This document shows, piece by piece, positions 832-40,381 of a stretch of DNA of 64,000 nucleotides. The translations under genes and the position numbers were made by a program. Every line of letters starts with the position of its first letter. The stretch's first letter is position 1. The notes beneath the pieces were generated by a model that saw nothing but the letters and a program-made list of their open reading frames with translations, made no database searches and was not told the origin of the DNA. The DNA is from Polyangia bacterium (lineage in GTDB: Bacteria; Myxococcota_A; Polyangia; JAAYKL01): positions 1-64,000 of the forward strand of contig JBNKCR010000026.1 in NCBI GenBank assembly GCA_050287845.1. Direction: 5' to 3'.

Positions 832-2253
832 TTATCGATACCAGTTCAGCTCTTTGCGAAGGCGAACCACATCTCCCACCACAATCAATGCGGGTCTGGG
901 CATGTCGGGAATATCAAGATGTTTATCGGTGGCTTCGCCCAGCGTGGTCTCAAACACCGATTGGGTGGGCAGGGTGCCATGGGAAATAATCGCAGCGGGA
1001 GTCGTGGCCGGTTTGCCGTTGGCAATCAGCTTTGCGGCAATATCCCGCAGACGGTGAACCCCCATCAGAAAGACGACAGTGCCCTGGCTGCTGGCAATAT
1101 CCTGCCAGTTGACGCGGCTTTCTGTTTTTTCAGGCGCTTCGTGTCCGGTGACCACCTGAAAATACGATGCGGCATCGCGATCGGTAATCGGAATCCCCGC
1201 ATAGGCCAGCGCCCCCACCGCAGACGACACACCGGAGACAATTTCAAAGGGAATGCCATTTTCTGCAAGCGCACGGGCTTCTGATGTGAGTCGACCGAAC
1301 ACACAGGGATCGCCGCCTTTCAGCCGGCAAACGGTTTTTCCATCCTGTGCCAGCTTCACCATGAGGGCATTGATGTCGTCCTGAGTGCGCAAGGCACAAC
1401 CGGCGCGTTTTGATGTATCGTATTGTTCCACAGAAGGAGAAACCCCGGAAAGCACCATCGGATTGACCAGACCGTCAAACAGAATCGCATCGGCCGACGC
1501 CAGCCCCCGAAGCCCTTTCACCGATATCAATCCCGGATCTCCGGGGCCGGCCCCCACCAGGTACACTATTCCCGGTACAGGTCGGGCGTCTCTCCTTCTT
1601 TCCATTTTTTCCAGTGAAGATTGCAACTCCCCCTGAAAATGTGCTTCCCGCTGGGACTCGGGAACCAGCGCCAATTGATTGGCCACCCGCTCAGACGCCA
1701 GATGTTTCAGGATCGCAGCCCGTGCGGAATTGTCCGCGCCCAGGTTGCGCAGCCGAGTCCGGGCTTCGGCCAGCAGGTCCAGATAGTGTTCATAAAAAGG
1801 CGGTACCAATGCATCCAACTCTTTTCGAAGCCGCTTGCACAGGGCGGGTGCGTCGCCATTGCTGGACACCGTCATCTGCAATCTCCCGCGGGAAATAACG
1901 GATGGAACAAAGAAAGTACACAGTTCCGGAACATCCACCACATTCACCGGAATCGATTTGGCGGTGGCATCCGCATACACCTGTCTGTTCACCGTTTCAT
2001 CATCGGTCGCGGCGATGACCAGCGCATAGCCGTCGCCCAGCCCTCGGTACGGTTCTGAAATAACGCGGATGACACCACGACTGCCCATTTCACGGATGTC
2101 GTCGAGAACTTCCGTGGCGACCACGTCCACTTTCATATTGAATTTCTGAAGCCATTCAATTTTCTGCAGCGCAATGTTTCCGCCCCCCACCACCATCGCG
2201 CGGTTGTTCTGTGTCACATTGAGTGAAATGGGAATGGTTCGGTATCGGTTCAT
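832..2253 (-). CDS. cysG: Siroheme synthase (precorrin-2 dehydrogenase/ferrochelatase fused to uroporphyrinogen-III C-methyltransferase)
   Basis: N-terminal VVGGGNIA…VNVVD.PELC.F..P; C-terminal VYLVGAGPGDPGL, RLKGGDP.VFGR. Start set at ATG 2253 after GGAG. Confidence 0.93.
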   Translation of the reverse strand: MNRYRTIPISLNVTQNNRAMVVGGGNIALQKIEWLQKFNMKVDVVATEVLDDIREMGSRGVIRVISEPYRGLGDGYALVIAATDDETVNRQVYADATAKSIPVNVVDVPELCTFFVPSVISRGRLQMTVSSNGDAPALCKRLRKELDALVPPFYEHYLDLLAEARTRLRNLGADNSARAAILKHLASERVANQLALVPESQREAHFQGELQSSLEKMERRRDARPVPGIVYLVGAGPGDPGLISVKGLRGLASADAILFDGLVNPMVLSGVSPSVEQYDTSKRAGCALRTQDDINALMVKLAQDGKTVCRLKGGDPCVFGRLTSEARALAENGIPFEIVSGVSSAVGALAYAGIPITDRDAASYFQVVTGHEAPEKTESRVNWQDIASSQGTVVFLMGVHRLRDIAAKLIANGKPATTPAAIISHGTLPTQSVFETTLGEATDKHLDIPDMPRPALIVVGDVVRLRKELNWYR

Positions 2254-2281
2254 ACGGTCTCCAACGTTGATGGCTCCAATA

Positions 2282-3208
2282 TCAATGGACATCAATTCCC
2301 CAAAGCATAAACAGGTTGTGTTCCAGAATACGGAGAATCTCTATCATGTATTCCTTCGTCGCTTTTTCACTGCCCGGCAGCGCGTAGATCTGCATCTCGC
2401 CAATGACCCCCGCCACCGATCGACTGATAAGCGCCTGGGGCAATGACACCCCATACTTCATGCGGACATAATCCATGATGCCGGGGATTTCCTTGTGAAA
2501 CATCGAAAGCAGGGTTTCCGGCGTGATATCCCGTTTGCCGATTCCTGTGCCCCCTGTGGTGAACAGCACATCCACCTCTCGGGCAACACAGTCCGAAACC
2601 TTGTACCGCAGCATCGTAGCGTCGTCCTCCATCACCACCCGCTCCACGCGAAGATGCCATGGGGTATTCGAAAAATGCGCTGTCAGCATCTCCTCAATCG
2701 CCGGACCACTCCGGTCTTCATACACCCCCCGGCTCACCCGGTCACTGAGGGTGATAATCGCCACTTTAAGTGGACGGGCCACATGCACAATCTCGTCCCC
2801 CGGCGCCACGCTTCCCTTTTCCAGTACCCGGCAGAAAATACCGTGCTCCGGCATGATGCACTTGCCGGCCTCCCTGAAAATGGCACATCCGCTGTTGTGA
2901 CAACGCTTGCCCAGCTGGGTGACTTCGAGAGTCCCCTCCCCCACATTCAGTGTGTCGCGAATGGCAATCTGCGAAAAGTCCAGCCCCACCGTTGTAATAT
3001 TTTCTCCAAAGGCGCCAGGCGGAAGAGATCGGCCAAGTTCAGCTTCAAACGCGCGAATCTGCTCCATCGAAAGCAGGCTCACCTGTCGGTGCCAATGGCC
3101 GGCGTGGGCATCCCCGGAGATTCCCCGGGATGTAAATGTCGCCGATGAGACCGCGGCTTTGGCAATCCCTTTCTGTTCGGATATATTCAGAGAGAACACA
3201 TTGGCCAT
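2282..3208 (-). CDS. MOSC domain fused to MogA/MoaB-type molybdopterin adenylyltransferase
   Basis: GDAHAG.WHRQVSLL, PGAFGENI, TQLGKRCH..C (MOSC); ITLSDR…DRSGP…TTGGTGIGKRDITPE, ALPGS (MogA). Confidence 0.88.
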   Translation of the reverse strand: MANVFSLNISEQKGIAKAAVSSATFTSRGISGDAHAGHWHRQVSLLSMEQIRAFEAELGRSLPPGAFGENITTVGLDFSQIAIRDTLNVGEGTLEVTQLGKRCHNSGCAIFREAGKCIMPEHGIFCRVLEKGSVAPGDEIVHVARPLKVAIITLSDRVSRGVYEDRSGPAIEEMLTAHFSNTPWHLRVERVVMEDDATMLRYKVSDCVAREVDVLFTTGGTGIGKRDITPETLLSMFHKEIPGIMDYVRMKYGVSLPQALISRSVAGVIGEMQIYALPGSEKATKEYMIEILRILEHNLFMLWGIDVH

Positions 3209-3209
3209 T

Positions 3210-3683
3210 TCATTGCATCGTTCCCGGTGCGACCGGCGTTCTGGTTTTTTCAAGCAATCGAATATTTTCAATGACCATCGCCCTGTCCACCGCTTTACAC
3301 ATATCATACACGGTAAGAAGAGCGGTGCTCACGGCGGTGAGCGCTTCCATTTCCACCCCCGTCTGACCCAGGGTTTTCACGATGGCAGTGACGGTAACCC
3401 CCACATCAGTCAATTCGGCTGAAACATTTATGTCGGTCAACCGCAACGGATGACAGAGGGGAATCAGCTCCGCGGTTCTTTTGGCGGCCATCACACCGGC
3501 CAGTTCCGCTGTGACGCATACATTGCCCTTTTTAACGGTGTTTTCGCAAATCTGCGCCCGCGCTTCGCTGTTCAGCAGAATGCTGCCAATCGCCCGGGCA
3601 AAACGCCGGCTCTCGGCTTTGTCTGTAACATCCACCATTCGCGGATGATTGTCCGCATTGATGTGGGTGAGTCTATTCTTCAT
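3210..3683 (-). CDS. moaC: Cyclic pyranopterin monophosphate synthase
   Basis: LTH…MVDV..K, LIPLCHP, TGVEMEALT, YDMCKAVDR. Confidence 0.95.
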   Translation of the reverse strand: MKNRLTHINADNHPRMVDVTDKAESRRFARAIGSILLNSEARAQICENTVKKGNVCVTAELAGVMAAKRTAELIPLCHPLRLTDINVSAELTDVGVTVTAIVKTLGQTGVEMEALTAVSTALLTVYDMCKAVDRAMVIENIRLLEKTRTPVAPGTMQ

Positions 3684-3687
3684 CCGC

Positions 3688-4491
3688 TCATCCTCCAATC
3701 TGGTAAAACAGACGGTCGCTCCTGTGACCACACGCCGGTTTATGACGCAATGCCCGGTTGAACGCCCGGGCAATACCGAGTCTGCGCACCGAAAACGATT
3801 CATTGCTGAACAGACACGGATATATCTCTCCGGTCGCAGCCAGTCGCAGCCGATTGCACCGGTCGCACTTTCCCCCCTCTCCCCCCATGACTTCCCAGAA
3901 CTCGCCGGTGGTCAGATTCATCCGCCGGATGTACCGGACTTCGAGGCCTTCCTGCTCGCCAAAAGCGCCAACCTTCCTGGCCGCGGGTTCGTTCATCGAT
4001 TCTGCAACCACGCAGTTCAACTTGATTCGACCGAAGCCCGCCTCCCTCGCCGCATCAATGCCGTCCAGCACCTCAGCGAGTTTTCCGCCTCCGGTATTCC
4101 GGAAAAATTCAGATTCATCCAGTGTATCAAGGCTGATGTTCAACCGGTGAAGGCCAGCGGCTCTGAGCGCACTGGCATATTTCCGCAATTGTGTCCCGTT
4201 GGTGGTCATCCCCAGGTCGTCAATGCCATCTATCCGGGCCAGCTTCTCCACCAGCGTGACAATCCCCCGGCGCAGGAGGGGTTCACCGCCGGTCAGCCGC
4301 ACTTTGCGAATGCCATGTTTCACCCCATACGCCACCACAGCCTCAATTTCTTCAAAGCGGAGAATGTCACCGGAACAAAGGTGGGGGGTGTCATTCAGTG
4401 GCCCCGGCGTGCAATACGTACACCGGAGATTGCATCGGTCGGTTACCGACACCCGCAGGTAGGTGATGGGGCGACTAAAGGCATCGAACAT
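3688..4491 (-). CDS. moaA: GTP 3',8-cyclase (radical SAM), compact variant of about 267 aa
   Basis: YLRVSVTDRCNLRCTYC, RLTGGEP, CxxCx13C and C-terminal IGG. Confidence 0.92.
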   Translation of the reverse strand: MFDAFSRPITYLRVSVTDRCNLRCTYCTPGPLNDTPHLCSGDILRFEEIEAVVAYGVKHGIRKVRLTGGEPLLRRGIVTLVEKLARIDGIDDLGMTTNGTQLRKYASALRAAGLHRLNISLDTLDESEFFRNTGGGKLAEVLDGIDAAREAGFGRIKLNCVVAESMNEPAARKVGAFGEQEGLEVRYIRRMNLTTGEFWEVMGGEGGKCDRCNRLRLAATGEIYPCLFSNESFSVRRLGIARAFNRALRHKPACGHRSDRLFYQIGG

Positions 4492-5665
4492 AGACCACGG
4501 TTCCCTTTTCCAACCGCGCCACGCCCTGTGGAACAGTAATGATTCCGTCGGCGTCACTGAACGCACTGATATGCGCCGACCCATGATATTCCATCAACGC
4601 CACCAAACCGGGTTCGGTGAAACGCACAGGAAAACTGGCTGCTCTTGCGGTTTTTTTTCGCTCCAGGGAGTCCATCAACGTCGCTGGAATCATCCGTGGT
4701 TGATAATGATACCCCATCAATCGATAAATGAATGGCTTTGCCAGAAGTTCAAAAGCAACATACGCCGATACCGGATTTCCAGGAAAACCGAAGCACCACC
4801 TGTTATCCTCTGATGCCCCGAACATCGTGGGTTTCCCGGGCTGCATGGCCACCTTCGAATATTCAAACGAAAACCCCGCTGCTACCAGGGCATCGGGGAC
4901 CACATCGTATTTTCCCATGGAAACCCCGCCGGATATAGCCACCACATCGCACTGTGCCTTCGCGCGCGATACCATTTGGCAGATAGAATCAAGCGTATCT
5001 GCTGCGATGCCGTAATACACGGGAATCGCCCCCGTCTCCCGTATCTGCGCCATCAACTGAAGGCTGTTGCTGTTGCGGATTTTGGCGCCCTCAATGGGTT
5101 GACCGGGTTCCACCAGTTCGCTCCCGGTGGCGATCACGCCGACGGTGGGACGCCGATACACGTTCACCGTGGCCCCGCCCGCGGCAGCCAATACCGCGAC
5201 ATGAGCGGCCAGAATGCGGGTCCCCTTTTTCGCCACCACTTCTCCTTTGCGAATATCTTCACCGGGCTGGCAGATATTGTCCCCGCCTGCCGGGGTGGTC
5301 ACCGACAATATGCCGTCATCGAGCATCCGGGTATGTTCCACCATCACCACGAAGTCCGCCCCCGCAGGCACGGGCGCGCCAGTCATAATACGAACGCATT
5401 GGCCCGGGCCAACTGCAACCGAAGGCATCTGTCCCGCAGCCACTTCGCCCACAATTTCCAGATTTTCTCGCAAATCAGCGCGTCGACAGGCAAATCCATC
5501 CATCGCCGATTTTGAGAACGGTGGCATATCCGTATCGGACAGGACATCCTCTGCCAGGATTCTGTTGCCGGCGTCATCAATAGCCACCTCTTCGGTTGAC
5601 AATTCCCGCGCGGCGTTCAGCGTTTTTTCAAGCGCGCGTTCCAATGATACTGGTGATTCCTTCAA
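4475..5665 (-). CDS. moeA: Molybdopterin molybdotransferase
   Basis: PPF.KSAMDGFA, RIMTGAPVP, TGSEL, SGGVSMG, QPGKP, PGNPVSA. Probable TTG start at 5665 after GGAGAGG. Confidence 0.93.
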   Translation of the reverse strand: MKESPVSLERALEKTLNAARELSTEEVAIDDAGNRILAEDVLSDTDMPPFSKSAMDGFACRRADLRENLEIVGEVAAGQMPSVAVGPGQCVRIMTGAPVPAGADFVVMVEHTRMLDDGILSVTTPAGGDNICQPGEDIRKGEVVAKKGTRILAAHVAVLAAAGGATVNVYRRPTVGVIATGSELVEPGQPIEGAKIRNSNSLQLMAQIRETGAIPVYYGIAADTLDSICQMVSRAKAQCDVVAISGGVSMGKYDVVPDALVAAGFSFEYSKVAMQPGKPTMFGASEDNRWCFGFPGNPVSAYVAFELLAKPFIYRLMGYHYQPRMIPATLMDSLERKKTARAASFPVRFTEPGLVALMEYHGSAHISAFSDADGIITVPQGVARLEKGTVVYVRCL

Positions 5666-5879
5666 TATGACCTCTCCAGTCAGAATTCTGAATACATACA
5701 TAACGATGATGACCGGCAATTCAAGCAATATTCACGTTGATGTCAAATGATTTCCGCGGAACCGATTCCCGACCGGGGATGCCTTTTCACATCGTCCGAA
5801 AGCAAAAGTGTATTTTTTATTCACAACCCACGGTTCATACATTCAATGAAATTCATGCTTTTTCGATTCAACGGGCCCC

Positions 5880-5895
5880 TGGTATGGCATTTGCT
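5880..5895 (+). promoter_or_regulatory. Sigma54 (-24/-12) promoter of the cyclitol operon
   Basis: TGGTATGGCATTTGCT: GG(5881-2)-N10-GC(5893-4), about 45 nt upstream of ATG 5940. Confidence 0.65.
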
Positions 5896-5939
5896 CAAAC
5901 CGTATTTTGAACATCGCGTGTTCAGAAAAGAGGAGAGCA

Positions 5940-7871
5940 ATGAAACAGGCACTGATTCTTGCAGCCGGGCGTGGCGCACGATTGGACAGACCCAATACTC
6001 CCAAACCCCTTGTGGATGTGGGGGGACAACCCATGATTGTCAGACTGATCAAACAACTGAAGCACCAGGGCATTGAGACCATCCATATTGTGGTCGGGTA
6101 CCAGGCAAAAAAAATTATGCATGTGCTCTCGGGATACTTTGGATACGAAACCGGGCTGGTCTTTCATGTGGCCCCGGATTGGGAGATGGGAAGCGCGTAC
6201 AGTGTGCTTGCGGCGAAAGAAAAGATTCGGGGAAATTTTCTTGTGGCCATGGCCGATCATGTTTTTGATGATGGACTGATAAAAAAAATGACCCGGCAGA
6301 ATCACGGCCCCAATGAAGTGGTGGCGCTGGTGGAAAGTGCGACACCGCATCCGAAAAAGGATAAAACCGCCCTGAAAGTGCGTGTATCAGATCACACCCG
6401 AATCAACGATTTGGGGATGCAGTTGAATGACGCCAACGGAATCGACGCGGGATTGTTTGCCGCATCCAGCGTCCTGTTTGATGTATTGTCGGGCATCACA
6501 TCCCGCCGTGGATATGCAGAACTCATCGATGGATTGAAAATTCTGGCCAGGACAGACGGTCTGTTTGCCTGTTTCACCGAAAAGCACAAATGGTTTGACG
6601 TGGATACGCCGGCGGATGTGATTCGCGCTGAGATGCACCTGCGGGATACACAGCGTCAAAAAGAAATCCGACCCATTCCGGTGTCGGCTTCGTTGAAAAC
6701 GGGACGCTGTTTCGACTATCTTATCCAAACCGACCAGCGAACCCGGATGATAGTGCAACGGGGAATCGTCACAGCGCCGGATCAATATCCGATAATTCCG
6801 GCATCCAGCGCCTCTTCGCCCATATTTCTGTTTACCGACGAAACGGTTGGCGGATTGTATGCCAACCGGTTTGTCTCAAGGCTGCGCAGTCAGGGATACA
6901 ACATTCACGCCATTACATTGCCCGACGGTGAAGAAGCCAAAACTATTTCGAACTATGTTTATCTGGTGGAACGGGTTCTGGCCAGAGGCGTTGATGAGCG
7001 TTCGGTGTTCATCTCCCTCGGGGGAGGCGTGGTCTGCAATGTGTGCGGTTTTGTCGCATCTACCATTTACCGGGGACTCGAACTCATTCATATTCCCACC
7101 ACGCTCATGGCCCAATGCGATGCGGCCATCAGTCACAAACAGGGAATCAACGGACACTTCGGGAAAAATATGGTGGGGGCATACTACTCTCCATCCAGCG
7201 TGCTGGTTGACGTGGAAGTGCTTCAGACCCTTACCGACCGCCAGGTTCGGGACGGTTTCGCCGAAGTAATAAAACATGCGATCTGTCAGGACGCAGCGTT
7301 CGGCGAACTTCTGTGGGCCTATCAGGGAAACATTCGCGCATTGGATTTTCTGGAAACCGTTATTGAACGCAATGTGAAGCTGAAATGCGAACTGGTAAAA
7401 AAAGATCCGAAAGAGCAACAGGACGCCATGGTGCTGCAGTACGGACACACCGCCGGACATCCACTGGAACATCTCTCGGGATATGTGCTGTATCACGGTG
7501 AAGCGGTGGCTATTGGCATGATGCTGGCCGCCCGAGTGGCATATATGCTGGGCGCCTGCAGCCAGAGATTGGTGGACTGGCATCTTGGACTGCTGAAAAA
7601 ATATGGACTGCCAACGGAGATTCCCCGCGAAATCATGTACACCGATTTCATTGACGCATTGCGGTTCAATAAGCGCTACGTGGCAGAAGGATCTCAGATG
7701 GCGCTGGTTGAAGCGGCGGGGAACCTGTGGCGCGTGGATGGACAAACGGCCATTCCGGTGTCGGACAGCATTATCTCCGCTGCGTTCCGCCAAACCCGGA
7801 ACCAGAATTTATCATTGAATGATTTGACGCAGAAAAAGGAAGTGAGTCAGTGGCAGCAGGTGGGTTCATGA
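5940..7871 (+). CDS. Fusion of an IPCT/LicC-like nucleotidyltransferase and a sugar-phosphate cyclase (DHQS superfamily, 2-deoxy-scyllo-inosose synthase-like)
   Basis: N-terminal ILAAGRG.RL…PKPL, MADHVFD, IDAGLF, WFDVDTPAD. C-terminal GEEAK, GGGVVCN, PTTLMAQCD, SHKQ, GKNMVG.YY.P, EVIK, QYGHT.GH, HGEAVAIGM. RBS AGGAG. Confidence 0.85.
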   Translation: MKQALILAAGRGARLDRPNTPKPLVDVGGQPMIVRLIKQLKHQGIETIHIVVGYQAKKIMHVLSGYFGYETGLVFHVAPDWEMGSAYSVLAAKEKIRGNFLVAMADHVFDDGLIKKMTRQNHGPNEVVALVESATPHPKKDKTALKVRVSDHTRINDLGMQLNDANGIDAGLFAASSVLFDVLSGITSRRGYAELIDGLKILARTDGLFACFTEKHKWFDVDTPADVIRAEMHLRDTQRQKEIRPIPVSASLKTGRCFDYLIQTDQRTRMIVQRGIVTAPDQYPIIPASSASSPIFLFTDETVGGLYANRFVSRLRSQGYNIHAITLPDGEEAKTISNYVYLVERVLARGVDERSVFISLGGGVVCNVCGFVASTIYRGLELIHIPTTLMAQCDAAISHKQGINGHFGKNMVGAYYSPSSVLVDVEVLQTLTDRQVRDGFAEVIKHAICQDAAFGELLWAYQGNIRALDFLETVIERNVKLKCELVKKDPKEQQDAMVLQYGHTAGHPLEHLSGYVLYHGEAVAIGMMLAARVAYMLGACSQRLVDWHLGLLKKYGLPTEIPREIMYTDFIDALRFNKRYVAEGSQMALVEAAGNLWRVDGQTAIPVSDSIISAAFRQTRNQNLSLNDLTQKKEVSQWQQVGS

Positions 7872-8620
7872 CGAACAGCATTGCGGTGGTGACAGGCGCC
7901 GGAAGCGGCATTGGCAGAGAAGTGGCACTTCACTTTGCCAGGAAGCAACTTCATGTATTTGCGGTGGGACGAAACCGGGACAAACTCGATAAAACAGTGG
8001 CGCTGGCGAATGCCGGAGAATCCATTGTGCCCATATGCGCAGACATCACCCACCCTGATAGCCTGCGACGGGCCCTGTCGGATATTGGCAGGGTGGATAT
8101 CCTGGTGGTGAATGCCGGTATCTGTGAACGGGCCAACATGTCGGATTCAGACGCAGCAGATGTGTGGCAGAAGGTGATTGCAACCAACCTCACCGGAAGC
8201 TGGCACACGCTTCACGGGGTTTGCGATCGTCTGGCGGAGGGCGCCAGGGTTGTCATGGTTTCTTCCGGGCTGGGAAAAACGGGTCGCGCCGGATACACCG
8301 CCTACGCGGCCAGCAAACACGGCATGCTCGGGATAATGCGATGCCTCTCCATGGAATGGGCGCCGCGAAAAATCACCGTGAATGCTGTCTGTCCAGGTTG
8401 GGTGAATACCGAAATGGCACTGGCGGATTTGAACACAACCGCATCGCTGCAGGGCACCAGCGTGCATCTGGAAAATAAAAAGGCCACTGAGAACATTCCC
8501 ATGGGACGATTTGTCACTTCCCATGAAGTGGCGTCCCTGATTGGTTGGTTATGCAGCGATGATTCCCGGATGATCACCGGTCAGGCATATAACATTTCAG
8601 GAGGAGAAATCGGGTTATGA
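7868..8620 (+). CDS. Short-chain dehydrogenase/reductase
   Basis: TGAGSGIG, NAG, YAASK, VNAVCPG; ATGA overlap with the upstream stop. Confidence 0.92.
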   Translation: MTNSIAVVTGAGSGIGREVALHFARKQLHVFAVGRNRDKLDKTVALANAGESIVPICADITHPDSLRRALSDIGRVDILVVNAGICERANMSDSDAADVWQKVIATNLTGSWHTLHGVCDRLAEGARVVMVSSGLGKTGRAGYTAYAASKHGMLGIMRCLSMEWAPRKITVNAVCPGWVNTEMALADLNTTASLQGTSVHLENKKATENIPMGRFVTSHEVASLIGWLCSDDSRMITGQAYNISGGEIGL

Positions 8621-9552
8621 ACGCTTATTACTTACCGCATCATCAGACACCTTTTTCAGGAAAAACGGCAACCGTCATCGGCCAGATCACCCATGACACC
8701 GGTGAACGGCCGCAACCCGGCGGATGTGCGTATTTTGCCGCCCGAACCCTGCAGGATCTGGGCGCGGAAATATCATTGCTCACGTGCGTGGGAATGGATT
8801 TTCAATTTGAACACAAACTGCGCGGCATGCGGCGAATCATTGATATGGGCAATCAGACCACCGTCTTCACCAATATTTATCCCGGGGATGGGCCTCGCAT
8901 TCAATACGTGACGCAGCAGGCGCCAGCCATTTCGCCCAACACTCTGCCGGACGAATGGTGCCACGCCGACCTGCTCATTCTGGCGCCGGTCATGGGAGAA
9001 CTCAGCGATGCAAAATGGCAGAAGATCAGAGGGGCCGGCCACACATCGATGTTTCTCCAGGGATTTCTGAAAGAGGCCACTCCCCTCACCCGCAACAACA
9101 GACGACTCGTTGTTCCCCGCGAAACCCCATTTCCGTGGGAAATCGTCGCGCATGTGGATTCTGTCTTTTTAAGCACAGAGGACATCGAGCTCTTTGCGTC
9201 TTCCGCCTTTCTGTCTCAACTGATTGAGCGGGTGCCCGTTGTTGCGGTCACCGACGGCGAAAACGGCTGTCGCATTCATTACAACGACACCTGTATCGAT
9301 GTGGGGGTGTTTCCGGTGGATGCCTGCAATCCCACCGGCGCCGGAGATACATTTGGCGCCACCATGGCGATGGCACTGGCCAGTGGATTCCCGGTAGCGG
9401 ACGCCGGTCGACTCGGTGCCGCTGCTGCGTCCACGGTGGTGGAACGAAATGGTGAAGAACGACTGACAAAAATGAATTTCACCTGGGAAAGATGGCGCCA
9501 TATCGCATCGAGAAAGATACAATGCCACCATGACTACACCACCTCCGGATAG
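8617..9552 (+). CDS. PfkB/ribokinase-family kinase
   Basis: IG.ITHD…PGG.AYFAA, VTDGENG, PTGAGDTF; ATGA overlap with the SDR stop. Confidence 0.88.
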   Translation: MNAYYLPHHQTPFSGKTATVIGQITHDTGERPQPGGCAYFAARTLQDLGAEISLLTCVGMDFQFEHKLRGMRRIIDMGNQTTVFTNIYPGDGPRIQYVTQQAPAISPNTLPDEWCHADLLILAPVMGELSDAKWQKIRGAGHTSMFLQGFLKEATPLTRNNRRLVVPRETPFPWEIVAHVDSVFLSTEDIELFASSAFLSQLIERVPVVAVTDGENGCRIHYNDTCIDVGVFPVDACNPTGAGDTFGATMAMALASGFPVADAGRLGAAAASTVVERNGEERLTKMNFTWERWRHIASRKIQCHHDYTTSG

Positions 9553-13589: not shown

Positions 13590-13618
13590 TTGACAAACAT
13601 TGATTCAGATTTCAAACT
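13590..13618 (+). promoter_or_regulatory. Possible sigma70-type promoter for the cytochrome operon
   Basis: TTGACA-N17-CAAACT, about 40 nt upstream of ATG 13659. Confidence 0.3.
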
Positions 13619-13658
13619 GCATTCAAATCAGACCGCTCCATGCAAGGATGAGAGATTT

Positions 13659-15950
13659 ATGATTCCTGAACTGTTGATATTCGTTATTTTCCTGGTATTG
13701 TTCATATGCATTGCCGCCGCTATCCGGATGTGGATAAAAAAAAGCCGGGAAGCCCACAGTCTGACCAGATACAATACGGTCGTTCAGGCCGGTGTTGATA
13801 TTCCCCCCACCCTGCACCCGGTGTTCGACGCCGCCCGGTGCATCGGGTCCGGCGCCTGTACCCATGTGTGTCCCCAGGGCGACGGAGTGGTGGGCCGCAT
13901 TCACAGCAGAGGGGTGCTCATCGATCCGACCAGCTGCATCGGCCACGGTCTCTGTGCCGCTTCGTGCCCCATGGGCGCCATCCGTCTGGTATTCGGCACC
14001 TCTGAACGGGGCGTGGACATTCCCCATCTCTCCAATCAGTTCGAAACCAACGTCCCCGGATTGTATATCACCGGAGAGCTTGGCGGCATGGGACTTATCG
14101 CCAATGCGGTGCGCCAGGCCAGAGAAGGCATGGACAATATTGCGAAGGTGCTGAAGAACACCCCTTCGGCAACCCACTCACCGGACATGGTGGATGTGTT
14201 GATTGTCGGCGCCGGACCGGCGGGACTGGCCAGTGCTCTGGCTGCCCGATTTCACGGTCTCTCCTATCGGCTTTTTGAACAGGAATCCTCGTTCGGCGGC
14301 GCCATTCTGCAGTATCCCCGCAACAAAATCGTAATGACCCAGGCCATCCCGTTTCCGCTGGCGGGAACGGTCCAGCCCACTACCATGAATAAAGCGAAAC
14401 TGGTTTCCATGTTTGAACGCATTGTTGTCGAACACCACATCAAACTGGAAACCGGCATGCGCGTCGAACAGATTTCCCGACAGGACGACGGCAGCTTCAT
14501 TGTGAAATCCGGCAAGACATCGGTGCATGCCCGGAAAGTCATGCTGTCCATCGGACGAAGGGGAACGCCCCGCAAGCTGGGCGTACCGGGGGAGCACCTG
14601 CCCCATGTCCGATATATGATGACGGAACCGGACACATATACCGGCCAGCGGGTGCTGGTGGTGGGCGGCGGCAACTCCGCCGTTGAAACCGCGTGTCTCC
14701 TTGCAGAAACGCCGCAAACCCAGGTGTCCCTCTCCTATCGCAGCGATTCCCCGGACCGGGCGAACGCCGCCAATCGCGAACGATTGGAAGCGCTGGTCAA
14801 CGAAAATAAACTTCAGACCATTGCCAACAGCACGGTCTCTGAAATCACACCGGAGTATGCATTGCTGACCCGGCAGGGGAGCGAAGTGCGCATCCCCACC
14901 GATGCCGTCATTGTTCAGATTGGCGGGGAACTGCCCAGTAATCTCCTGAAGCATTTCGGGGTTTCTCTGGAACGGCATTTCGGCGAAGAAACCGAAGAAA
15001 ATCGCACCATGGCATCGGCGGATGACGTGTTCCACCACATCCGGCGGCAACGACGGGCCGAGGGACTTCAAAACTTTCATGTGGAAAAACCCGGAATTCC
15101 CGGCTGGCTGAAGTGGTTGCTGGGAATACTGAGCATCGCTGTGCTGGGAGTGCTGTTCTACACCGGCCGCGCTTACTATCTCACCCCGGAAATCATTCGA
15201 CGCGACATGGAATCGCTCCATGTGTTCGGGGCGTCCGGCATCTTCGGACACTCCATCGGCATCTGGGCGGCGGTACTGATGGCGTTCAATCTGCTGTATT
15301 TTGCCCGCAAAGAATACCGCGTCTTCAGCAGATTCGGCAACATTCACAGCTGGATGTATTTTCACCAGTTCAGCGGGTTGCTCGCCGCCGTGGTCATCCT
15401 GTTGCACACTGCGCTCATTATGCACAACGCCTTTGCCCTGGCCCTTTACATCAGTCTGGGGCTGCTGTTGCTGACCGGCATTATTGGTCGATATCTGTAT
15501 GTGATGGTCCCCACCGATCCCCGGGGGCGTCCCCTCACCCACGAGGCGCTGGTGGACCTTTCGGACCGTATGAAAGAACAGTACAGCGATCTGTTCGGAC
15601 AGCTGGACGCCACCATCGAAGTGTCCAAAGTGCTGGACCGGGGGTACCAGCCCAATCATTCGTTCGCCATGCTGTTGCTGCGCCTGTTCACCATCTGGCC
15701 ATACCGCCTTTTTCAGCTCTCAGGCATCTTCCGCCGCGCACACAGGCAGCTTGCCGAAAAAGAAGCGTTCGCAGCGTTCAAACATTACGGCACCGAAATG
15801 GCGCGTCTGCATCTGCAGCTGGAAATCGCGTGGCGCATCAAACGCCTGCTCAGTCTGTGGCGGCACGGCCATGCCATTCTGGCGATGCTGACCGTGGCCC
15901 TGGTAACCATTCACGTCATCATTGAAATAGAGGTGGGGTACCTGCCATGA
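13659..15950 (+). CDS. Membrane oxidoreductase: N-terminal TM anchor, 2x[4Fe-4S] ferredoxin, thioredoxin-reductase-like FAD/NAD(P)H domain and C-terminal cytochrome b-like membrane domain
   Basis: CIGSGACTHVCP and CIGHGLCAASCP; IVGAGPAG; GRRGTPRKL.VPGE; VVGGGNSA; TM helices with two H-x13-H pairs. Confidence 0.82.
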   Translation: MIPELLIFVIFLVLFICIAAAIRMWIKKSREAHSLTRYNTVVQAGVDIPPTLHPVFDAARCIGSGACTHVCPQGDGVVGRIHSRGVLIDPTSCIGHGLCAASCPMGAIRLVFGTSERGVDIPHLSNQFETNVPGLYITGELGGMGLIANAVRQAREGMDNIAKVLKNTPSATHSPDMVDVLIVGAGPAGLASALAARFHGLSYRLFEQESSFGGAILQYPRNKIVMTQAIPFPLAGTVQPTTMNKAKLVSMFERIVVEHHIKLETGMRVEQISRQDDGSFIVKSGKTSVHARKVMLSIGRRGTPRKLGVPGEHLPHVRYMMTEPDTYTGQRVLVVGGGNSAVETACLLAETPQTQVSLSYRSDSPDRANAANRERLEALVNENKLQTIANSTVSEITPEYALLTRQGSEVRIPTDAVIVQIGGELPSNLLKHFGVSLERHFGEETEENRTMASADDVFHHIRRQRRAEGLQNFHVEKPGIPGWLKWLLGILSIAVLGVLFYTGRAYYLTPEIIRRDMESLHVFGASGIFGHSIGIWAAVLMAFNLLYFARKEYRVFSRFGNIHSWMYFHQFSGLLAAVVILLHTALIMHNAFALALYISLGLLLLTGIIGRYLYVMVPTDPRGRPLTHEALVDLSDRMKEQYSDLFGQLDATIEVSKVLDRGYQPNHSFAMLLLRLFTIWPYRLFQLSGIFRRAHRQLAEKEAFAAFKHYGTEMARLHLQLEIAWRIKRLLSLWRHGHAILAMLTVALVTIHVIIEIEVGYLP

Positions 15951-18604
15951 CACCAACCATCCATCAACGTCTCTTCGCCGTCTGTCTCCCTGCGCTCGTT
16001 CTCGCCTGTTCGATATTGGCCGGTGTCGCCGCGCACGCCCAGGTATTTTCCCCGGGCAAGCTATCGCGCTTTCATGCAAAATGGGATTCCCTTGGCCATT
16101 GCGACGAGTGCCACACCACAGGCCAGCGGGTGGACAGAAAAAAATGTCTATCGTGTCACGAGCCGGTCGCAGAACGAATCCGGCAGAAAAAAGGCTTTCA
16201 CGGCCAGAAACGGGTTCGCACTCAGTCCTGCGAAAATTGTCATTCGGAGCATCGGGGCGAAACGGCGTCCATCATCAAATGGTCATTTTCAGACCACGGC
16301 GATACCCTGGCCAAACGGGGAGAGGCCGATTTCAACCACGATCAGACCGGCTGGCCCCTGCGGGGGTCCCATGCAAAGGTAAAGTGCAACAACTGTCATC
16401 GAAAGGAACTGATCCGCGATGCCAGAGTGCTCAAGTACCTCCAATCCCATCCCGGCGCCCACACCTTTCAGGGGCTCACCACCCGGTGCGCGGACTGTCA
16501 TTTTGATGAGCATCGCGGCCAACTGACAAGCCGCTGCGAAAAGTGTCACGATGAAACCGAGTTCCGGAAGGCCCCAAAGTTCAAGCACAATGAGCACTGG
16601 AAGCTGAACGGCGCCCACAGAACCGTGGAGTGCAAACTGTGTCACCGGGAGCAGGTGGACGCCAACTACCGGCAAAACGCGTTTCCCAGACCCAGAGCGT
16701 CCACTTATCTGCGGATGACGCCCGTCACCCATGGCAAATGCGTTGACTGCCACAAAGACCCTCACGAAAAGCGTTTCGGAAATGATTGTCTGTCGTGTCA
16801 TACCGAGGACACCTGGATTCTGAACTCGCAACCTCGGGACCTGACGTTCCACGACAGGACCAACTTCCCACTCAAAGGCCGGCATCGTTTTGTTCCCTGT
16901 GAACGATGTCACCCCAGAAATGCCCGGGGCAAAATGAAGCAAAAGCCCATTGCCCACGATCGCTGCAACACGTGTCATCCCAACGCCCATCCGGATTTCG
17001 GCAAGGGCGCCCGACTGTCCACCGGGGACTGTGGGGACTGTCATGACAACAATAGATTCTCGCCTTCCACCTACTCGGTTGAAGTGCATCAGAAATCCAG
17101 GTTTCCCCTGTCAGTGCCCCATCAGGCGGTCCCGTGCACCGATTGTCACCTGAAAAAAATGGGCTCCCCGATTGGCGACAATGCCGCCCACAAGCTCAAT
17201 GGATTTGCCGCCAAACGGGTACACTCTCCCTGGCGAATGACTGCCCGGATATCTCCGGATGACTGCAGTTCCTGTCACGAGTCGCCCCATCGAGATCAGT
17301 TCGGCAAAAAGAAATGCACGGCGTGCCATGTCAAAACCACGTGGAAAATCGACCCGGCCGGCTGGCAGCATTCGAAGCACAGCAAGTACGCGCTGGAAGG
17401 ACGGCACAGGAAGGTGCCCTGCTACCAATGCCACAAAACCGAAACCGATTCGGACGGCCACCAGTTTGTCCGATACCGCCCCATGGCCCATGACGACTGC
17501 ATTGATTGCCACACCGATCAGCACGCCGGTCAGTTCCAGTATCTGTCCCCCCGGAAGAAGTGCCGGGACTGTCATGACGTGAACGGGTTCGCTCCATCCA
17601 GGTTTGATCATAACGATCCGGCATTCAGCTCGTTTCCATTGAAAGGCAAGCATGCATCGGTCAAATGCGCCAGATGTCACCCCCGGGTGAAACTGTCCGA
17701 TGGTTTCTCCACCCTCCGATATCGACCCACGGTCACTGATTGCGATCTGTGTCACGAGGACGAACACAAGGGCGCCTTTAAAGAAGTGGCGGCGATGCAG
17801 CGCAGCTCGGTCACGCCGTTTCACAATACTTCCGACGCCACTGCACAGAAAGATTCATGGCAGATGCCATCGAGCTGGATTCCAGAGGAGAGCAGCCGGA
17901 CCGATTGTGCCGCCTGCCACGAGGAATCGGGCTTCGCCAACGTGCACTTCAACCACGACAACACGAGATTTCCCCTGAAAGGCAGGCACCGGCAGGTCCC
18001 GTGCGCCAGTTGTCACAAAACCAGCATCAATGATCCCCTGCCCCTCACCTGCGAGGGATGCCATACCGACGTACACAAGGGCAGTCTGGGCCGCAACTGC
18101 CAGGAATGTCACGATGAAAGTGGTTTTCAGAATACGCTTCCCGCGGTACTGGCTCGACACAACCGAAGTCGATTTCCGTTGATTGGTCGACACGCCGCCG
18201 TTCCGTGCACTGAATGTCACCGGGATGGGAACAGCCGAGAATTTAAAAAGACGCCCACCGATTGCCGGGCGTGCCATGCCAAAGATATTCCCGGTCCGGG
18301 AGAAGCCGCGATTGACCACGACCAGCTGGATATGGCCTGCGATCGATGTCATACCCCGGTAGGATGGCACACTGCCGCCTTTGAGGGACACGATCGCTGC
18401 TTCCCCATTGGCACGGTCTCCAAACACGGTTCGGTCGCGTGCAGCAAATGCCACCTGGGAAATCCCCCTCGCCGACTGGCCAACTGCGACACCGGCACAT
18501 TTTCGTGCATTCAATGTCATGGATGTCAGACCTCCCGTCACCGGGACGTCGTTGGATATTCATGTGAGGACAGGAGGTGCTACGAATGCCATCGCACACC
18601 ATGA
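15947..18604 (+). CDS. Secreted multiheme cytochrome c with 30 CxxCH motifs
   Basis: Signal peptide ending AHA-Q; 30 CxxCH counted by hand; repeating FPLxGxHxxVxCxxCH units; ATGA overlap. Confidence 0.95.
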   Translation: MTPTIHQRLFAVCLPALVLACSILAGVAAHAQVFSPGKLSRFHAKWDSLGHCDECHTTGQRVDRKKCLSCHEPVAERIRQKKGFHGQKRVRTQSCENCHSEHRGETASIIKWSFSDHGDTLAKRGEADFNHDQTGWPLRGSHAKVKCNNCHRKELIRDARVLKYLQSHPGAHTFQGLTTRCADCHFDEHRGQLTSRCEKCHDETEFRKAPKFKHNEHWKLNGAHRTVECKLCHREQVDANYRQNAFPRPRASTYLRMTPVTHGKCVDCHKDPHEKRFGNDCLSCHTEDTWILNSQPRDLTFHDRTNFPLKGRHRFVPCERCHPRNARGKMKQKPIAHDRCNTCHPNAHPDFGKGARLSTGDCGDCHDNNRFSPSTYSVEVHQKSRFPLSVPHQAVPCTDCHLKKMGSPIGDNAAHKLNGFAAKRVHSPWRMTARISPDDCSSCHESPHRDQFGKKKCTACHVKTTWKIDPAGWQHSKHSKYALEGRHRKVPCYQCHKTETDSDGHQFVRYRPMAHDDCIDCHTDQHAGQFQYLSPRKKCRDCHDVNGFAPSRFDHNDPAFSSFPLKGKHASVKCARCHPRVKLSDGFSTLRYRPTVTDCDLCHEDEHKGAFKEVAAMQRSSVTPFHNTSDATAQKDSWQMPSSWIPEESSRTDCAACHEESGFANVHFNHDNTRFPLKGRHRQVPCASCHKTSINDPLPLTCEGCHTDVHKGSLGRNCQECHDESGFQNTLPAVLARHNRSRFPLIGRHAAVPCTECHRDGNSREFKKTPTDCRACHAKDIPGPGEAAIDHDQLDMACDRCHTPVGWHTAAFEGHDRCFPIGTVSKHGSVACSKCHLGNPPRRLANCDTGTFSCIQCHGCQTSRHRDVVGYSCEDRRCYECHRTP

Positions 18605-20331
18605 TTCGACAACGGTTCGCATTCATCGTGATGATCATTTTCAGTCTGGCTGGCATCGGCGTCCACGCAGCCAGGTTGGACGCGCGAATCACCTACGTGG
18701 CCCTGGACAGTGTCTATCTGTCGTGCGGTCGTGAATGCGGCGTGGCGGTCGGCGACTCGTTCAGGCTGATGCGCCATGGCAAAATGGTCGCCCGAATCCG
18801 CATCATCCAGGTCAACGATACTTCGGCGTCCGCCACGGTGACCGTGAAGAAAGGCCGCATCCAGGCGGGAGACCGGGTCATCCCTGAGAAAACGAAGACA
18901 ACGAAGACGAAAAATGCCCGCGCCACCTCGCCAATCGGTGGTGTGGTGGTACCTCCGGCCACGTCCCATCAGAATCCACAATGGGACGAAGACGGCCTGC
19001 AGGACGTCTGGACCCGGGCCCTTATCGAATCCCCGCCGGTTCGGGTCGCGCACCGGAACACCGGCGCCGACCCGGATCGACTTACCACACTGGCGGCAGG
19101 CGCCGGAACCGCCCTGCACCAGTATGCCTACATTCAGAGCCGGAACTATCTGCGCACCGAGCAGACCCTCTGGTTTTTTGCCCGCGGAGGCCAGGCATCG
19201 GAACCGGGAATGAGCTGGGCCGTGGACGGCACGCTCAAAGGCCGATACGACGACGGAAATGATCGGTATCTCGAAGATCAGCGGTTCATTCCCCTGATTC
19301 GCCGTCTCTCGGTTTCATATCGTTTCCGACAGCATCCCATCACCCTGACCCTGGGCCGCTTTTCACCGGATGCGCCTATAGTGCATACCATTGATGGGCT
19401 GGAAACCGAACTGGAAGCCCGCCGCTTCTCCCTGTCCCTGTTCGGGGGAATTCTGCCCGACGAACAGGATATGGCGCCCACGGTGACCCGCCAGGCCGTT
19501 GGCATTGCCACAAGAATCACGCCGCTGGCTGCGGGGAATTACACTGCCGAAGCGGTGGTCCTGGCCAAACTGCACAAAGGCGCACTCTATCGCGCCGCAT
19601 TGGGAATCAACAACTGGTTCTACACTGAATCGGGGGCTCATTTCTCCCAGACAGCCGTTGTTGATTTTCTCTCTGCATCGAAAGATGCCAAGTCCCGGGG
19701 AGACGTCACCCTAAGCCGCGCCACCGTTGACGCCGCATGGCCCCTGACCGGACGCATGCAGATGGATGTGCGCGGACGCTACGACAAATCGGTTCTGTTT
19801 TCCCGGGATTACAGCGACCTGCCCCCGGAATGGCTTTCATATGTCGATTGCACCGGACAGGCGCGGCTGGAAACGGGCCTGCCCATGCGTACCCGCAGGT
19901 ATCGCGAAGTTCGTCCATTTGTATTCGGCCGGGCCGATCTGGTTTCCTGCGGGGTGGATGGCGGCAGAGGCGGAGCGGGCGTCAGCATTCGCGATGACTC
20001 CGTATTTTCTTCGCAAACCGGCCTGACCACGGTTGTCGACTACAGCGGGGGCACCGGTCAGACGCTGAATATTGACCTCACTACCAATACGCCTTTTAAA
20101 AGCGGTGCGCTGCAGCTGCTCGGCGGGCTATATACCACATGGAACTGGGTATCTCAGTCCGAAGTGCACACCCTGCGCAATCTCGCTTTTGTAATGCTGC
20201 AGGGACAACTGCGGCCCAACATTGATTTGTTCGCCAATTTGCAGGCCGGTTATGACCACGCGCTGGTACGCCTGACATATCCGTTCGGGGTGTGGATGCA
20301 GGTTCACATGGGAATTACCGCACGCTACTGA
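18601..20331 (+). CDS. Putative outer-membrane beta-barrel with a small N-terminal beta domain
   Basis: Signal peptide; alternating amphipathic strands; ends MQVHMGITARY with a terminal aromatic; ATGA overlap with the cytochrome stop. Confidence 0.65.
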   Translation: MIRQRFAFIVMIIFSLAGIGVHAARLDARITYVALDSVYLSCGRECGVAVGDSFRLMRHGKMVARIRIIQVNDTSASATVTVKKGRIQAGDRVIPEKTKTTKTKNARATSPIGGVVVPPATSHQNPQWDEDGLQDVWTRALIESPPVRVAHRNTGADPDRLTTLAAGAGTALHQYAYIQSRNYLRTEQTLWFFARGGQASEPGMSWAVDGTLKGRYDDGNDRYLEDQRFIPLIRRLSVSYRFRQHPITLTLGRFSPDAPIVHTIDGLETELEARRFSLSLFGGILPDEQDMAPTVTRQAVGIATRITPLAAGNYTAEAVVLAKLHKGALYRAALGINNWFYTESGAHFSQTAVVDFLSASKDAKSRGDVTLSRATVDAAWPLTGRMQMDVRGRYDKSVLFSRDYSDLPPEWLSYVDCTGQARLETGLPMRTRRYREVRPFVFGRADLVSCGVDGGRGGAGVSIRDDSVFSSQTGLTTVVDYSGGTGQTLNIDLTTNTPFKSGALQLLGGLYTTWNWVSQSEVHTLRNLAFVMLQGQLRPNIDLFANLQAGYDHALVRLTYPFGVWMQVHMGITARY

Positions 20332-39379: not shown

Positions 39380-40381
39380 ATGGCAGAAGATTTTGGAACC
39401 GGAAATAATGTCATTTCGCTGGCAAGTAAGAGAAAGCAGTCCCAACAGGTTGTTGAAGAGGTCAAGGACATTTTTCGTTTGCAGGCAATGGCTATTGCCA
39501 GTCTTTCCAACAAAATAAACGGCGAGTTCAGCAGAGCTGTCAAGACTATCCTCAATACGACCGGACACCTTGTGGTTTGCGGCATCGGAAAATCAGGCCT
39601 GATTGGTCAGAAGATGGCAGCAACCTTTGCGTCTACGGGAACGCCCAGCTTCTTTGTTCATCCGGCTGAGGCCTATCACGGCGATCTGGGCATGATCACC
39701 GAAGAGGACTCAATCATATTGATTTCCAATAGCGGCGAAACTGAAGAAATTGTCCGCCTGATTCCTTACCTGAAACAGATTAATATTCCCATTATCGCAC
39801 TTGTTGGCAGGCTGAATTCCCACCTGGCAGCCCAGGCCGATGTCTGTATCGATATATCTGTTGACCGGGAGGTATGTCCCAACAACCTGGCGCCAACGAA
39901 TTCGACACTGGCAACCCTCGCCATGGGGGATGCGCTCGCGGTTTCATTGATCAAGGAACGTGATTTCCAGGCCAATGACTTTGCCCGGTTGCATCCCGGG
40001 GGAACTCTTGGTCGAAAATTGCTAACGGCAGTTAAAGACGTCATGCATACAGGCGCGCTACCGATTGTTTCACCGGAACAGAGTGTCCAGGATTCACTGA
40101 TACCAATGACCCAGGGCCGTCTGGGCCTGGTACTTGCCATGGAAAACGACAAGCTTCTGGGAATCGTTACAGATGGAGATCTTCGCCGAGCGCTTCAGAA
40201 ACACGCTGATCTGTCCAGAGTCACTGTAGGCTCTATCATGACTTCAACCCCCAAGACCATTTGCGAAACAGCACGATTGGCGGATGCCGAAGACATCATG
40301 AAACAAAATAAAATAAAAGCACTTGTGGTTTTAAACGACAGCGGTAAGGTCTCGGGGATTCTGGAAATCTTTGACGATTGA
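39380..40381 (+). CDS. kpsF: Arabinose-5-phosphate isomerase (SIS plus 2 CBS domains)
   Basis: GIGKSG, STGTP, HP.EA.HGDLG, ISNSGET, LAPT, HPGG.LG, TDGDLRR. Confidence 0.92.
   Translation: MAEDFGTGNNVISLASKRKQSQQVVEEVKDIFRLQAMAIASLSNKINGEFSRAVKTILNTTGHLVVCGIGKSGLIGQKMAATFASTGTPSFFVHPAEAYHGDLGMITEEDSIILISNSGETEEIVRLIPYLKQINIPIIALVGRLNSHLAAQADVCIDISVDREVCPNNLAPTNSTLATLAMGDALAVSLIKERDFQANDFARLHPGGTLGRKLLTAVKDVMHTGALPIVSPEQSVQDSLIPMTQGRLGLVLAMENDKLLGIVTDGDLRRALQKHADLSRVTVGSIMTSTPKTICETARLADAEDIMKQNKIKALVVLNDSGKVSGILEIFDD

Follow-up and report, generated by a model that had tools for sequence, protein, structure and literature searches.

A conserved three-gene cassette headed by a nucleotidyltransferase–cyclase fusion in Myxococcota, a candidate route to an activated cyclitol phosphate

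A 64,000-nucleotide stretch of contig JBNKCR010000026.1 (positions 1–64,000, forward strand; assembly GCA_050287845.1 of a Polyangia bacterium), hereafter the window, carries a cassette of three open reading frames on the forward strand, at 5940–7871 (643 aa), 7868–8620 (250 aa), and 8617–9552 (311 aa). The genes are coupled by ATGA start/stop overlaps, genes 1 and 2 at 7868–7871 and genes 2 and 3 at 8617–8620. The first ATG (5940) is preceded by a Shine–Dalgarno-like GAGGAG at 5930–5935, as read from the sequence. Pfam assigned NTP_transf_3/NTP_transferase (residues 4–235) and DHQ_synthase with DHQS_C (residues 325–578) to the first protein, adh_short to the second, and PfkB to the third. The first protein is thus a fusion of a nucleotidyltransferase (residues ~1–245; 5940–6674), resembling CTP:inositol-1-phosphate cytidylyltransferase (IPCT) in its best PDB matches and conserved motifs, and a sugar-phosphate cyclase of the 3-dehydroquinate synthase (DHQS) fold (residues ~258–620; 6714–7871). 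Its AlphaFold model was confident (mean predicted local distance difference test score of 90.6). The original prediction, made from the sequence alone, had described three coupled genes headed by such a fusion, and the coordinates and both overlaps agree with it. The cassette is real and conserved, and it would represent an apparently undescribed pathway in which known enzyme types are arranged around a new clade of cyclases.

A predicted sigma54-type −24/−12 promoter site lies ahead of the cassette at 5879–5895 on the same strand (GG at 5881–5882, GC at 5893–5894). It matched 13 of the 13 positions of the consensus, in agreement with the sigma54 promoter proposed earlier. There were 22 such full matches in the 7.17-Mb genome, and this was the sole one in the window; RpoN is encoded in the genome as well. 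In 18 of 49 loci, the region ahead of the fusion contained a site scoring at least 11, against 0.64 expected from shuffled sequences, the 49 regions including the window and some near-duplicates or kin. Among 13 loci of close relatives, 12 had upstream sequence and four of these had a sigma54-type site, two of the four repeating earlier loci. Conservation of the site suggests that the cassette is expressed conditionally.

Of 1324 database matches to the fusion, the best 120 were near-full-length two-domain proteins (coverage 91–100%, identity 47–92%), and the fusion is therefore not an assembly artefact. Named hosts among these 120 were Deltaproteobacteria, Myxococcota, and Bradymonadales, one being labelled merely 'Proteobacteria'. 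Within the phylum, 30 of 401 genomes had the fusion, one of the 30 having the cyclase without a fused nucleotidyltransferase; in the host's family it was present in 12 of 20. More distant fusions with the same cyclase clade were found in Patescibacteria, and one Thorarchaeota protein is an unfused member of this clade.

Gene order was compared in 62 loci, after the duplicates L055 and L066 and the distant matches L071 and L073 had been dropped. The gene for a short-chain dehydrogenase/reductase (SDR) followed the fusion in 52 of the 54 loci with at least 300 nt of downstream sequence; the kinase followed in 40 of the 42 loci with at least 1600 nt, and both genes did so in 39 of the 42. Both loci without an adjacent kinase had one elsewhere in the same genome. 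All three genes were present in 12 of the 13 close-relative loci, a set which partly overlaps the 62. The three genes thus co-occur in other genomes, as had been expected. We further compared 80 hand-picked rather than randomly drawn genomes, 29 carriers and 51 non-carriers; the kinase subfamily was detected in 28 of the 29 carriers vs. 4 of the 51 non-carriers, and no statistical test is claimed because the genomes are kin. One genome (G427) had two copies of the fusion (L283 and L284), the second without adjacent SDR or kinase. The L097 locus (G346:C45) had a split form, with a stand-alone cyclase of the clade followed by SDR and kinase, and a different nucleotidyltransferase and a CDP (cytidine diphosphate)-alcohol transferase encoded divergently; a pair of the latter kind was widespread among carriers and non-carriers alike.

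The cyclase domain belongs to the DHQS-fold superfamily: PF01761 and PF24621 scored above their cut-offs, Foldseek gave a TM(target) of about 0.9, and the GGG NAD motif is present. Phylogenetic trees were reconstructed with FastTree from 169 domains (9 fragments dropped) and with IQ-TREE from 37 chosen domains, and the two agree; neither tree includes BtrC itself or EVS. Plasmid-encoded references were aligned, namely annotated 2-deoxy-scyllo-inosose synthases (DOIS), AroB, and sedoheptulose-7-phosphate cyclases, together with a DDGS identified through an adjacent O-methyltransferase and an EboD encoded within an ebo cluster. The DOIS references are annotation-based, one of them having been checked against BtrC 2d2x (E 7e-78), through which the BtrC numbering was obtained. 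The family of the window formed a clade of its own, characterized by Gln (IQ-TREE support 91.5/99), beside the Glu-bearing DOIS clade (99/100). Both grouped with a third clade of GGKQ type (93.4/98 with IQ-TREE, 0.992 with FastTree), and this joint group stood apart from AroB, EboD, EEVS, and DDGS in both trees. The expected placement away from AroB was therefore recovered, but the domain fell into a sister clade rather than inside DOIS. It is not AroB, since a separate housekeeping aroB lies in an aro operon among open reading frames for 3-deoxy-arabino-heptulosonate 7-phosphate synthase, aroD-like, and aroA-like proteins (names from translations), and since the Asp/GGKT/Arg/Asn signature of every AroB in the trees is missing; its separate clade also speaks against AroB identity. 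The uncharacterised GGKQ clade (P0177, P0189, P0190, P0193, P0195, P0198, P0206, P0211, and P0216) has Asn, GGKQ, and, in place of BtrC Glu243, a hydrophobic residue, and includes several long fusions. Within the Gln family, a large 'DFKQ' subclade (P0130, P0150, P0168, and relatives, including a Thorarchaeota protein) has Asp or Glu at the AroB Arg position and likely uses a different substrate.

The metal ligands E442/H503/H519 were conserved in 121 of 121 family proteins, and K400, K409, N410, K445, K482, E492, H507, and K578 were likewise invariant; the Lys/Asn/His/Arg set common to AroB and DOIS is invariant in the family. The Asp of AroB GGGxxxD is replaced by Asn in 120 of the 121 proteins and the AroB Arg by Gly or Ala in all of them, and the SxKQ positions are occupied by Ser in 117, Lys in 121, and Gln in 118. 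DOIS-type features are accordingly N367 (N108 in BtrC), S398/K400/Q401 (S139/K141/Q142), and G/A496 (G239). The motifs GGGVVCN, SHKQ, YYSP, and QYGHT, previously taken as DOIS-like, are present, and GGGxxxN and SxKQ are indeed of DOIS type, but xYGHT does not discriminate: the AroB chains 3clh and 3qbd read NYGHT, and the informative residue is the first one of the motif. At this position (Q500, BtrC Glu243) the family has Gln in 115 and Met in 6 of the 121 proteins and Glu in none, whereas all DOIS-clade sequences have Glu, BtrC reading FEYGHT. We take Glu243 of BtrC to be the base for phosphate elimination that separates DOIS from DHQS, a role not found in our literature look-ups. AroB has Asn at this position; the substrate's own phosphate acts as the base there, and phosphate is still eliminated. 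Identity with a true DOIS was rejected on account of the separate clade and the Gln/Met, and because the cyclase stands in a sister clade with Gln for Glu243, neither substrate nor stereochemistry can be transferred from BtrC. EEVS and DDGS references have M and P in place of K482 and H507, and their residues at the K482, Q500, and H507 positions (M-D/A-P) as well as those of EboD (H-D-H) are not matched by the family. The cyclase thus likely works like DOIS without being a member of it.

In the second protein (7868–8620), a classical SDR by its adh_short domain and catalytic residues, Y146/K150/N107 were conserved in 38 of 38 homologues, with the YxxxK pair present. R35, which follows the second strand, was conserved in 32 of 38. 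An Arg at this site favours NADP(H) and reduction. The protein is predicted to be an NADPH-dependent inosose reductase.

The third protein (8617–9552), a PfkB-family kinase, is a member of the myo-inositol-kinase subgroup, to judge from fold and contact residues, which makes the previously suggested link to inositol kinases specific. The first and second Foldseek ranks were taken by 3w4s, the myo-inositol 3-kinase (MI3K) of Thermococcus kodakarensis (E 3e-18, TM 0.73/0.82; other structures 4xf6 and 4xf7), and the third by TM0415. With the family profile, higher-scoring PDB matches covered the C-terminal ATP part only, and the best full-length match was again the T. kodakarensis enzyme; matches to TM0415, 7ag6, and 3kd6 were also long. 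PMC5931981 names D12, G26, Q136, R140, and D219 as the inositol contacts of MI3K. Four of the five are identical in the cassette kinase (D27, G36, Q148, and D244), and K152 replaces R140; conservation among 34 homologues was 33, 33, and 34 for the first three, 34 for the Lys, and 34 for the last Asp. The ATP-type TGAGD motif occurs in 34 of 34. A pyrophosphate-dependent ribokinase-family enzyme of the TM0415 type was rejected, the RXGRGD motif of such enzymes being absent. The cassette kinase further differs from MI3K in its biosynthetic rather than catabolic context.

For the nucleotidyltransferase domain, the best PDB matches were archaeal IPCT 2xme (E 4e-19; profile E 1e-31) and 4mnd, followed by 4jd0, with LicC 1jyk far lower (E 1e-9; profile E 9e-11). 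The IPCT signature GxGxRL...K, MxDH, WxDxDT is present, and MxDH, DxG, and WxDxDT are conserved in the family. The assignment of MADHVFD, IDAGLF, and WFDVDT, all present, to an IPCT-like domain is therefore supported. The score on the bifunctional IPCT–transferase model was 108 bits vs. a cut-off of 580. The literature searched yielded no paper on the contact residues of IPCT.

The kinase and the nucleotidyltransferase each independently match inositol-handling enzymes best, and three domains point independently to inositol-like chemistry. The likely substrates place the reactions in one natural order. The NAD+- and metal-dependent cyclase would form a 2-deoxy-inosose from a hexose 6-phosphate, glucose 6-phosphate being the likeliest, and release the phosphate; since Gln replaces Glu, the substrate's own phosphate probably acts as the base, as in AroB with Asn. 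Using NADPH, the SDR would reduce this ketone, giving a quercitol (a deoxy-inositol), the MI3K-like kinase would phosphorylate the quercitol with ATP, and the IPCT-like domain would transfer CMP from CTP to yield CDP-quercitol. A kinase placed between reductase and nucleotidyltransferase fits a dephosphorylated cyclase product. In the last and weakest step, an unlinked CDP-alcohol phosphotransferase of the DIPPS/AF2299 type may transfer quercitol-phosphate to a lipid alcohol, much as BEPIS uses CDP-inositol. According to PMC7348060, 2-deoxy-scyllo-inosose is reduced to scyllo- and vibo-quercitol in yeast, and an INO1-IPCT-BEPIS route making an ether lipid from CDP-inositol is mentioned in PMC4587543 (citing Jorge et al.). 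We consider it probable that the four domains make an activated cyclitol phosphate; for the whole route, including delivery of CDP-deoxy-inositol to a membrane lipid, the chances appear evenly divided.

Besides the cassette, the genome of the window encodes INO1, a stand-alone IPCT-like nucleotidyltransferase, and four CDP-alcohol transferases, of which one resembles DIPPS/AF2299. This candidate acceptor enzyme (G000:C34) had its best matches in IPCT/DIPPS (E 1e-28) and AF2299. In L076, L078, L080, and L086, the cassette is divergent from INO1, MMPL, and PAP2_3 genes, with a CDP-alcohol transferase called in three of the four and PgpA in two; these opposite-strand sets look like inositol-phospholipid or inositol-ceramide loci. 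A CDP-alcohol transferase adjoins one of the 13 close-relative loci, namely L293, where the cassette is divergent from it. INO1 was found in 19 of the 29 carriers vs. 42 of the 51 non-carriers; the cassette thus does not depend on INO1, nor does it simply replace it. The simplest reading of these gene contents is that the cassette would supply a second, conditionally expressed CDP-cyclitol donor to existing transferases. At L122:6728–8614 (G000:C97), a fusion of a nucleotidyltransferase with a class V aminotransferase was noted, which has the PntC-AEPT architecture, which suggests phosphonate decoration.

Several results weigh against the proposed route. Raw similarity places AroB above DOIS, DOIS 2d2x ranking 8th with phmmer, 7th with the profile, and 14th with Foldseek; the score on the aroB model TIGR01357 (282.5 bits) is near, though below, the cut-off of 305, and the position of BtrC Glu243 holds Gln or Met. 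The best PDB match of the SDR was actinorhodin ketoreductase, with no cyclitol-specific match; the identity of the kinase to MI3K is only 17%, and three genomes of at least 90% completeness have the kinase without the cyclase family. CTP as the nucleotide is an assumption carried over from IPCT. No fourth gene is conserved beside the cassette in the 62 loci, and no acceptor or CDP-alcohol transferase is a conserved neighbour there, a transferase adjoining four of them (L076, L078, L086, and L097); the CDP-alcohol phosphotransferase sought after the original prediction is thus not conserved beside the cassette in the phylum. No CDP-alcohol transferase cluster was specific to carriers, and the cluster of DIPPS-like transferases occurred in six carriers and six non-carriers. 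INO1 and the stand-alone IPCT-like nucleotidyltransferase could feed the DIPPS-like transferase with ordinary CDP-inositol.

The alternative that survives best keeps the same four reactions and leads from the CDP-cyclitol to a soluble di-cyclitol-phosphate solute, comparable to di-myo-inositol phosphate, or to a surface glycan, with no lipid involved. Such a product would suit the candidate acceptor, whose closest matches are IPCT/DIPPS and AF2299, and the promoter site, which suggests conditional expression. We regard it as unlikely: envelope genes adjoining the cassette in the phylum are of lipid type (INO1, CDP-alcohol transferase, MMPL, PAP2_3, and PgpA), one glycosyltransferase was found among 105 neighbour proteins scanned, and the polysaccharide locus of the window lies about 30 kb from the cassette. 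Rather improbable is a bypass of INO1, with phosphate retained through inosose phosphate and inositol phosphate to ordinary CDP-inositol and with the kinase salvaging free inositol. Gln/Met in place of Glu243, the occurrence of the kinase without the cyclase, and the failure to find INO1 in 10 of the 29 carriers (four from one genus, three at most 93% complete, several with withheld bases) favour it, but the other 19 carriers, as well as the genome of the window, hold INO1, AroB eliminates phosphate with an amide at this very site, and the Lys/Asn/His/Arg set is invariant. Moreover, the kinase is coupled in 40 of 42 loci, and the route would have no need of it unless the cyclase released the phosphate, a point against phosphate retention. 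A C7 carbasugar route from sedoheptulose 7-phosphate via valiolone to a phosphorylated nucleoside-diphosphate pseudosugar, as for validamycin and acarbose, would employ the same combination of cyclase, reductase, kinase, and nucleotidyltransferase, and EEVS loci also hold a kinase and an SDR. It seems highly improbable, as both trees place the family well away from EEVS, DDGS, and EboD (EVS being in neither tree), K482 and H507 stand where EEVS/DDGS have M and P, ValA 4p53 and 5tpr ranked last among the cyclases, and the kinase is PfkB and not ROK. That the cyclase is a second DHQS with an incidental fusion is scarcely credible in spite of the best raw matches to AroB and many database names reading '3-dehydroquinate synthase', given the aroB elsewhere, the missing signature, and zero shikimate genes among the 105 neighbours.

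The CDP-quercitol route proposed here has partial precedents. With DOIS/BtrC the cyclase shares the fold, the metal/NAD machinery, GGGxxxN, SxKQ, Gly/Ala for the AroB Arg, and the supported superclade; it differs in Gln/Met for Glu243, the separate clade, and the fusion to a nucleotidyltransferase. Annotated DOIS have aminotransferase, glycosyltransferase, and radical-SAM neighbours, while the neighbours here are SDR and kinase, in line with the earlier view that this is not the known DOIS context. The INO1-IPCT-DIPPS/BEPIS systems likewise use an IPCT-type domain with MxDH and WxDxDT, and in them, too, it is the cyclitol phosphate that is activated and not the lipid. In the cassette, however, the ring would come from a DHQS-fold cyclase, a reductase, and a kinase rather than from INO1 and is predicted to have one hydroxyl fewer, and the fusion partner of the IPCT-like domain is the cyclase and not a transferase, in an operon without a transferase. 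EboD is a precedent for an AroB-annotated clade that makes a different C6 deoxy-inosose; it belongs to another clade, its signature reads D, GVKx, H, LDF, and the genes of the ebo cluster are absent here. As indicated in PMC12904256, side clades of this kind can act on a different hexose phosphate.

The cassette is bordered by opposite-strand genes on both sides, a molybdenum-cofactor cluster upstream and a gene for a phosphoenolpyruvate/pyruvate-binding-domain protein downstream. The divergent molybdenum-cofactor/siroheme cluster (832–5728) is shared with the close relative L008, in which two other genes intervene before the cassette. At 13,590–20,331, translations gave three consecutive proteins: a ferredoxin/FAD-oxidoreductase membrane protein, an 885-aa multi-CxxCH protein, and a beta-barrel-like protein. 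The GC content falls from ~56% to ~37% toward the window end across a polysaccharide locus of the capsule/rhamnan type at 39,380–63,798, for which no link to the cassette was shown; the genes of this locus encode a SIS-CBS isomerase, an ABC-2 permease, an export protein, Gmd, an epimerase, a 1643-aa GT1, and two RgpF proteins.

Neither the fusion nor the cassette was found described in the literature searched, which covered few subscription journals (home to much cyclase enzymology) and no supplements, and a quercitol-phospholipid head group or a quercitol-phosphate building block was not found there either. All four enzyme types are already known. We tentatively propose, at somewhat less than even confidence, that the cyclases of the Gln-type clade constitute a new sugar-phosphate cyclase class feeding an INO1-independent, Kennedy-type CDP-deoxyinositol route, and that Myxococcota and Bradymonadales, together with the Patescibacteria and Asgard archaea represented in this clade, may make quercitol-phospholipids or quercitol-phosphate envelope units. 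The molecules to search for would be CDP-deoxyinositol (for CDP-quercitol, a [M-H]- of about 548 is calculated from the formulae, 16 Da less than for CDP-inositol) and analogues of inositol lipids 16 Da lighter, and Bradymonas sediminis and Lujinxingia litoralis are cultured hosts with named homologues. A natural Glu-to-Gln clade bears directly on phosphate elimination by these cyclases. If the proposal is true, a new activity in the sugar-phosphate cyclase superfamily has been hidden under the names 'AroB' and 'iron-containing alcohol dehydrogenase', and DOIS-like chemistry would move out of antibiotic production and into the metabolism of the envelope or of lipids.

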